From: Escherichia coli
GTDB taxonomy: Bacteria; Pseudomonadota; Gammaproteobacteria; Enterobacterales; Enterobacteriaceae
Reading direction: 5' to 3' (one strand)
DNA length: 64,000 bases
Assembly: GCF_003334305.1 (NCBI RefSeq)
Contig: NZ_QOWS01000006.1
Shown piece after piece: positions 6,457-7,909 of the stretch (position 1 is its first letter; the number at the start of each line of letters is the position of its first letter). A program made the translations under genes and the position numbers. The notes beneath the pieces were generated by a model. The model searched no databases. It saw only the letters and a program-made list of their open reading frames with translations, and was not told the DNA's origin.

Positions 6457-7850
6457 GCGGTACCCTCACGACGCGGTGCGCGTTTGCGTGGACGACGAGT
6501 ACGACGACGCGGTGACGGTTCTTCATCCAGCTCGTTAAGCATCCCTTTTTGATCTGGTGGTGCGGAAACCTGGAACTCACCCCACCATTTCACCAGACGC
6601 TGCAGTTCAGCATTACGTTCAACTTCAGCTCGCAAGGCCAACAGGTCATAAGCCGCACGGAACTTAGGATGCTCCAGCAGTTTCCATGCGCGTTTACCCT
6701 GACGACGGGACATACGCAACTGCAACTGCCAGATATCGCGGGTTAACGTCGTCAGACGTTTCGGGATTGCCAGTGAACGGCAGGCTTCGTCCAGCACGTC
6801 GTTCATCGCCAGCGCGAAAGCGTCGTGATAGGTCAGGCCGCTTTCCTGGGCGATCTTCTGTGCCGTCTCCAGCAGTGGGTACCAGAACATGGCGGCAAAC
6901 AAGAACGCCGGGTTCACGCGCATATCGTTATGGATACGCGTATCGGTATTCTTCAGCACCTGTTCAATGATCCGCTCCATCGGGCTGTCGCCATTTTCCG
7001 TGAAGTAGCGGGTAATGGTCGGGAACAGCGGCTGGAACAGATGATATTCACACAACAGCTTATAGGTTTCGTAACCGTAGCCCGCTTGTAGCAGTTTAAG
7101 CGATTCTTCAAACAGGCGTGCCGGTGGGATATCGTTCAGCAGGGTAGCGAGGCGAGGGATCGGTTCTGCGGTTTCCGGGCTGATGCGCATACCCAATTTG
7201 GCGGCAAAACGTACCGCGCGCAGCATACGTACCGGATCTTCACGGTAGCGCGTTTCCGGGTTACCAATCAGACGGATAACGCCGTCCTTCAGATCCTTCA
7301 TACCGCCAACGTAATCACGGACGGTAAAATCCGCTACGCTGTAATACAGGCTGTTGATAGTGAAATCGCGGCGCTGGGCGTCTTCTTCGATGGAGCCGAA
7401 AATGTTGTCGCGCAGCAACATGCCGTTTTGCCCGCGTTGGGAGGTCGTGCGGTCGCTGACGTTACCTTCGTGGTGTCCACGGAAGGTTGCAACTTCGATA
7501 ATCTCCGGGCCAAACATCACATGAGCCAGACGGAAACGGCGACCCACCAGGCGGCAGTTACGGAACAGTTTGCGCACCTGCTCAGGCGTGGCGTTAGTGG
7601 TTACGTCAAAATCTTTCGGCTTTTTGCCAAGTAACAGGTCGCGCACGCCGCCGCCAACCAGCCAGGCTTCGTATCCCGCTTTGTTGAGCCTGTACATTAC
7701 CTTCAGGGCATTTTCACTGATATCTTTGCGGGAAATAGCATGCTGCTCACGCGGGATCACCGTCACCTGTGGACGGGCGACTGCCTGTTCAGCCTCGCTT
7801 TCCTCGCGGCTTAGCACCTTGCGGCAAAAATTAGCGACTCGGGTAAAAAT
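6453..7850 (-). CDS. pcnB: poly(A) polymerase I; likely initiates at a non-canonical ATT codon
   Basis: ORF track 472 aa; PcnB sequence begins [17 protein letters not shown]...; ATT codon at 7848-7850 matches the reported AUU start (465 aa). Confidence 0.85.
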
Positions 7851-7909
7851 AGTACACCTCGGTAGTGTCAAACATCATTCAGGACAAAAAAATAGCGGCT
7901 AATCATAGC

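Follow-up and report, generated by a model that had tools for sequence, protein, structure and literature searches.

An AUU codon behind an invariant Shine-Dalgarno sequence very probably initiates translation of pcnB in Escherichia coli

Initiation of Escherichia coli pcnB, the gene for poly(A) polymerase I (PAP I), at an AUU codon was reportedly shown by experiment in 2002 by Binns and Masters (Mol Microbiol 44:1287), who are also said to have found that expression is limited by this codon. The AUU start is credited to that work in the relevant passages of PMC2939334, PMC3561954 (discussion), PMC9764084, PMC5499595, PMC4245954 and bioRxiv 10.1101/063800, and passages of papers citing Binns & Masters (2002) also ascribe a 'poor ribosome-binding site' to pcnB. 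A cell contains about 30-50 molecules of the enzyme, whose overproduction is toxic (PMC3561954). As a non-canonical codon, AUU is rejected by initiation factor IF3 (PMC5499595), and its initiation efficiency with an sfGFP reporter is about 1-2% of that of AUG, four near-cognate codons ranging from 0.02 to 3% in other constructs (bioRxiv 10.1101/063800); a passage of a retapamulin Ribo-seq preprint counts AUU among the allowed start codons. The gene for IF3 itself, infC, resembles pcnB in having an AUU start that is discriminated against by IF3 and is conserved across species (PMC5499595). In infC, however, the AUU gives rise to an autoregulatory loop in which IF3 represses its own mRNA, whereas the AUU of pcnB is said to hold down a toxic enzyme constitutively. 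We know of no feedback acting on the pcnB AUU start.

In this study, we describe the pcnB start in a 64-kb stretch of E. coli DNA (the whole of which is called the window here) and compare it with the corresponding region of related and more distant bacteria. In E. coli K-12, too, pcnB stands between gluQ and folK and GAGGTGTACT precedes an identical ATT; window and MG1655 agree throughout the start region, no relevant difference was seen, and the window represents another strain with the same feature. The AUU start of pcnB is already known, is correctly annotated in reference genomes and is not new. It is one of only two confirmed AUU starts in E. coli, the other being that of infC, and forms part of how a toxic RNA-tailing enzyme is kept at a few dozen copies. 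Automatic ORF finders, which are unable to call ATT starts, produce a PcnB of 472 aa (from TTG) or 454 aa (from GTG); the main value of recognizing the ATT start lies in annotation quality, as it leads to the correct protein of 465 aa.

Both the ORF list and the RefSeq feature tables place dksA, gluQ (7910-8836), pcnB and then folK (5977-6456) on the minus strand of the window, which is the conserved enterobacterial order dksA-gluQ-pcnB-folK. Membership of PcnB was defined by the NCBIfam equivalog NF008634 together with the Pfam domains PolyA_pol, PolyA_pol_RNAbd and PolyA_pol_arg_C. A query of 451 nt around the pcnB start found a match in all but one of 5426 complete E. coli genomes (5425), with 100% identity to the chromosomes of several strains, which identifies the window as E. 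coli. Read on the minus strand, the region runs TGA (7877-7875) TGT TTG (7871-7869) ACA CTA CCG AGG TGT ACT ATT (7850-7848), and the codons that follow the ATT are TTT ACC CGA GTC GCT AAT TTT TGC CGC AAG GTG (7817-7815) CTA. The mechanically determined ORF (6453..7871) opens at the TTG, encodes 472 aa and contains the ATT in frame as its codon 8; translation from the ATT yields 465 residues, the coding sequence for PAP I then occupying 6453..7850 on the minus strand (465 codons plus stop), as supported by the ORF, NF008634 and RefSeq. The minus-strand reading and the ORF list therefore confirm what the preliminary description had stated, namely that an ATT at 7848-7850 lies in frame seven codons inside the TTG-opened ORF. 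Its identification of this codon with the known AUU start of poly(A) polymerase I, in preference to the TTG upstream, likewise holds up against RefSeq annotation, the NF008634 family model, the papers that cite the original work and the species comparison described below.

A Shine-Dalgarno sequence, GAGGTG, is found at 7855..7860 on the minus strand, 4 nt upstream of the ATT (6 nt when counted from the GAGG core). The 3' end of 16S rRNA, CACCUC, offers six-base complementarity to this motif. With six nucleotides at a good spacing, the pcnB Shine-Dalgarno sequence is at odds with the 'poor ribosome-binding site' of the literature. The bare occurrence of the motif carries little weight, in that GAGGTG-N4-ATT was matched once in the 64-kb window, at the pcnB site, against 0.43 matches expected by chance, and at least one match appeared in 37 of 100 shuffles of the window. 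Taken alone, an ATT among the first codons of an ORF is statistically unremarkable, and the significance of the pcnB codon comes from its conservation and from the literature.

Reference annotation and the curated family model agree on the ATT. In RefSeq, pcnB of MG1655 (b0143, NP_414685.4) extends over 157729..159126, encodes 465 aa and has ATT as its start codon, preceded by ...CCGAGGTGTACT; the PGAP annotation of strain E2865 begins the pcnB CDS at locus position 1701, which corresponds to window position 7850, and PGAP annotation of the divergent strain N56 (98.2% identical) starts at the same ATT. The pcnB ORF product scored 997 bits against NF008634 (cutoff 702), with profile positions 1-468 of 469 aligned to residues 8-471 of the TTG-opened ORF. 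Since position 1 of the profile falls on residue 8, the curated PcnB family begins at the ATT codon. Published transcript mapping refers to the same codon: PMC2939334 counts its positions from 'the translation start codon ATT' and gives -263 to -265 for the pS2 transcription starts and TAAACT for the -10 element, and the window contains CTAAACT at 8127-8121, which is 6-8 nt upstream of 8113-8115 (7850 plus 263 to 265). This fit indicates that the ATT of PMC2939334 is the ATT at 7850. The literature search, which included the supplements of the N-terminomics papers PMC13245402 and PMC11005335, returned no ribosome-profiling or N-terminal proteomics record for the PcnB start, pcnB having no entry in either supplement.

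The species comparison is based on one scan of species-representative genomes, from which 80 Enterobacteriaceae pcnB loci with 86-100% protein identity were obtained. The codon aligned to the pcnB start was ATT in all 80 species, and GAGGTG stood exactly 4 nt before it in every one of them, with the 4-nt spacer itself occurring in ten variants. We regard it as very likely that translation of E. coli pcnB starts at the AUU at window positions 7850-7848 (minus strand), on which the ribosome is positioned by the GAGGUG Shine-Dalgarno sequence that precedes the codon by 4 nt. The assignment of the initiation codon to 7848..7850 on the minus strand draws on the sequence itself, RefSeq starts, the 80 species, three more distant loci (L083, L084 and L088) and position 1 of NF008634.

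Two other in-frame codons compete for this role. Initiation at the upstream UUG (7869..7871, minus strand) would give the 472-aa protein and make the ATT an internal isoleucine codon. Ahead of the ATT, no other canonical start codon lies in frame, and the UUG is the one that mechanical ORF finding returns. It has also been named as the initiation codon in the literature: the introduction of PMC3561954 gives 'UUG' (its refs 6 and 17) and its discussion AUU, a wording that shows a historical disagreement over the pcnB start. At the corresponding position, TTG was present in 26 and ATG in 2 of the 80 species. However, the E. coli TTG is not preceded by a purine-rich run resembling a Shine-Dalgarno sequence (TTGTCCTGAATGATGT), and 43 of the 80 species had no in-frame ATG, GTG or TTG between the ATT and the first in-frame stop upstream, such stops coming as near as four codons before the ATT. 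In E. coli, the stop closing the frame upstream of the TTG is the TGA at 7875..7877 (minus strand), as seen in the sequence and in the 80-species comparison. Moreover, the spacing between the conserved promoter block and the ATT ranged from 29 to 65 nt, the differences not being divisible by three, and the sequence upstream of the Shine-Dalgarno motif behaves as non-coding across this comparison. The codons between TTG and ATT consist of the Shine-Dalgarno sequence and its spacer, so that no coding function is needed to account for their conservation. Both RefSeq and the curated PcnB model begin at the ATT, and the distant homologues do not reach upstream of the AUU position. We therefore consider initiation at the UUG highly improbable, and the TTG is probably not the main start.

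Two of the same 80 loci, both from Salmonella enterica (L022, subsp. diarizonae; L023, subsp. arizonae), have an ATG in place of the upstream TTG, located 21 nt before position 1201. This in-frame ATG lies seven codons before the conserved ATT and has no obvious Shine-Dalgarno sequence; gene callers would probably start there.

The second competitor is the GUG at codon 12 (7815..7817, minus strand), from which a 454-aa protein would be made, the conserved stretch before it then being a non-coding regulatory leader. This GTG is present in 80 of 80 species, some gene callers begin their proteins at it or its equivalent (P0002 and L088), and strong nucleotide conservation upstream of it could in principle mean a leader. 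Against this, no Shine-Dalgarno sequence precedes the GTG, the upstream sequence being TTTTTGCCGCAAG, and the pattern of variation before it is that of a coding sequence. The variable sites within codons 2-11 (ACC/ACT, GCT/GCA, TTT/TTC, CGC/CGT/CGA and AAG/AAA) are all five synonymous third positions, for which the chance would be about (1/3)^5 = 0.004 if they were randomly placed among codon positions; codons 1-9 are almost invariant in nucleotides, so that few informative substitutions are available within the family. The pcnB frame thus behaves as coding directly after the ATT.

More distant lineages point in the same direction. The arrangement GAGGTG-N4-ATT was kept in the three more distant Enterobacterales loci. 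In L083 (62% identical, from a genome of 1.08 Mb), the sequence reads GAGGTGTCCT ATT TTT ACC CGA GTT TCT..., the stored gene call starts at the ATT, and codon 12 is GTC and not GTG, which argues against a conserved GUG start. The corresponding regions are GAGGTGTACC ATT TTT TCC CAG ATC GCA AAC TTT TGC CGC AAA GTG in L084 and GAGGTGTATT ATT TTA AAA CGA ATC ACG CAA TTA TAT CGC TCA TTA GTG in L088. The gene call of L088 begins at the downstream GTG, but the twelve codons before it are open, in frame and encode a similar hydrophobic/basic peptide; in both L088 and L084 the stretch from the ATT to codon 12 has diverged in nucleotides and yet remains free of stops and retains this type of peptide. 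In a further locus, L085 (a metagenome contig, 55% identical), AGAGGA is followed 7 nt later by ATT ATT, which is suggestive of a comparable start.

A homologue search over 1.84 billion representative proteins extended the comparison to sequences with 43-48% identity, whose alignments reach residues 2-11 of E. coli PcnB and whose called N-termini (for example MIRKLIKVF..., MIKKLFKKIF..., MINQFIRRIL...) lie no more than a few residues away from the AUU position. The N-terminus that results from the AUU in E. coli thus matches the register of the whole family. The hydrophobic/basic N-terminal motif, which in E. coli is encoded upstream of GTG-12, is common to these homologues, where it follows a canonical start, and this too speaks against GUG-12. 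The two homologues inspected as DNA use canonical codons, L086 starting ATG ATT CGA and L087 starting with GTG. Considering these findings together with those for the family, we give very little credence to the GUG at codon 12, and as main starts both it and the upstream TTG appear unlikely from the comparative evidence. The alignment of orthologues accordingly bears out the preference of the preliminary description for the ATT, which is shared by all 80 Enterobacteriaceae species, the distant homologues beginning at the equivalent residue. In this small sample, the AUU start of PcnB appears restricted to Enterobacterales.

The non-enterobacterial homologues (L086 and L087; P0008-P0142) start with a canonical ATG or GTG at the equivalent of the E. 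coli AUU position, often as Met-Ile-(Arg/Lys)-Lys, and have in common the short hydrophobic/basic motif, after which comes a variable linker.

With initiation at the AUU, the GAGGUG Shine-Dalgarno sequence would position the ribosome on the invariant codon, which would pair imperfectly with the initiator tRNA; IF3 would be expected to reject such complexes, and the AUU codon would in this way keep PAP I synthesis low. By analogy with other AUU starts such as that of infC, discrimination by IF3 may thus limit pcnB translation. We infer that the AUU has been retained because PAP I synthesis is thereby capped.

It is possible that the start region carries more information than the codon itself. 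The first ten pcnB codons (7821..7850, minus strand), the rare CGA included, are almost invariant in nucleotides. Their third-position entropy among 78 Enterobacteriaceae species was 0.145, compared with a gene mean of 0.95, and was the lowest (rank 1 of 421) of all ten-codon windows within the first 430 codons, with the rare CGA codon kept in 78 of 78 sequences. This nucleotide invariance suggests a constraint at the RNA level besides that on the protein. In the minimum-energy fold, a helix between the GGUG of the Shine-Dalgarno sequence and the UACC of codons 2-3, extended by a flanking CG/CG pairing, encloses a 9-nt loop that contains the AUU. The leader and gene start (111 nt) showed no excess of structure over shuffled sequence (z = +0.62), the GGUG/UACC hairpin showed no covariation, for which the invariance of the start region precludes a test, and L084 keeps the GGUG/UACC pairing only partly. 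An Rfam scan of 7600-8200 gave no match at E <= 1, and this null result together with the z value rules out a known riboswitch or leader family at the pcnB start. We consider it rather unlikely, and offer it only tentatively, that AUU initiation is tuned beyond the effect of the codon by a conserved cis-acting RNA element comprising the Shine-Dalgarno sequence, the AUU start and the first 9-10 codons; such an element may be a weak hairpin with the AUU in its loop, or a binding site for a protein or small RNA.

With regard to transcription, a sigma-70-like promoter, TTCTCA-17 nt-TATGAT, is located at 7902..7930 (minus strand), within the gluQ 3' end, and is the only promoter-like match in 7650-8250. 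Its TATGAT -10 element lies within the block GAGCTATGATTAGCCGC, which includes the gluQ stop codon and is conserved in 72 of the 80 species. This promoter is probably the published major promoter pB of pcnB. The upstream UUG would be included in a transcript from pB, which can be counted in its favor; since it lies inside a pB-derived transcript, transcript mapping alone cannot exclude it as a start, and it is the comparative data that do so.

A third proposal is compatible with the AUU start and not exclusive of it. According to this proposal, an additional, shorter PAP I isoform is made from an internal AUG at codon 52 (about 7697-7695), by way of the sigma-S promoter pS1 inside the gene. 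Activity of pS1 has been reported both in vitro and, for ppGpp0 cells, in vivo, and two bands were noted in anti-PAP I Western blots (PMC2939334); a passage of the same paper notes that a putative Shine-Dalgarno sequence and AUG had been proposed by Liu & Parkinson (1989). However, the authors of PMC2939334 themselves called the isoform unproven, and among the 80 species ATG-52 was found only in Escherichia, most Citrobacter and few other genera, with no ATG elsewhere. We regard the existence of this isoform as improbable.

Several minor features of the locus were also observed. A perfect TTGACA hexamer (7866-7871, minus strand) in the pcnB leader begins with the upstream in-frame TTG and is kept only in some genera, namely Escherichia, Citrobacter, Kosakonia and Phytobacter. 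As a promoter -35 element this hexamer (7871-7866) was rejected, there being no acceptable -10 element at 16-18 nt after it. At the other end of the gene, the pcnB stop overlaps the folK start in an ATGA at 6453-6456 (minus strand). An ATGA overlap of stop and start is the usual arrangement for translational coupling. Finally, annotations do not agree on the start of gluQ (8807-8836, minus strand): in MG1655, b0144 has 927 nt, begins at the ATG at 8836 and encodes 308 aa, and in PGAP annotation the gene has 897 nt, begins at an ATG 30 nt further downstream and encodes a protein of 298 aa, MTDTQYIG....
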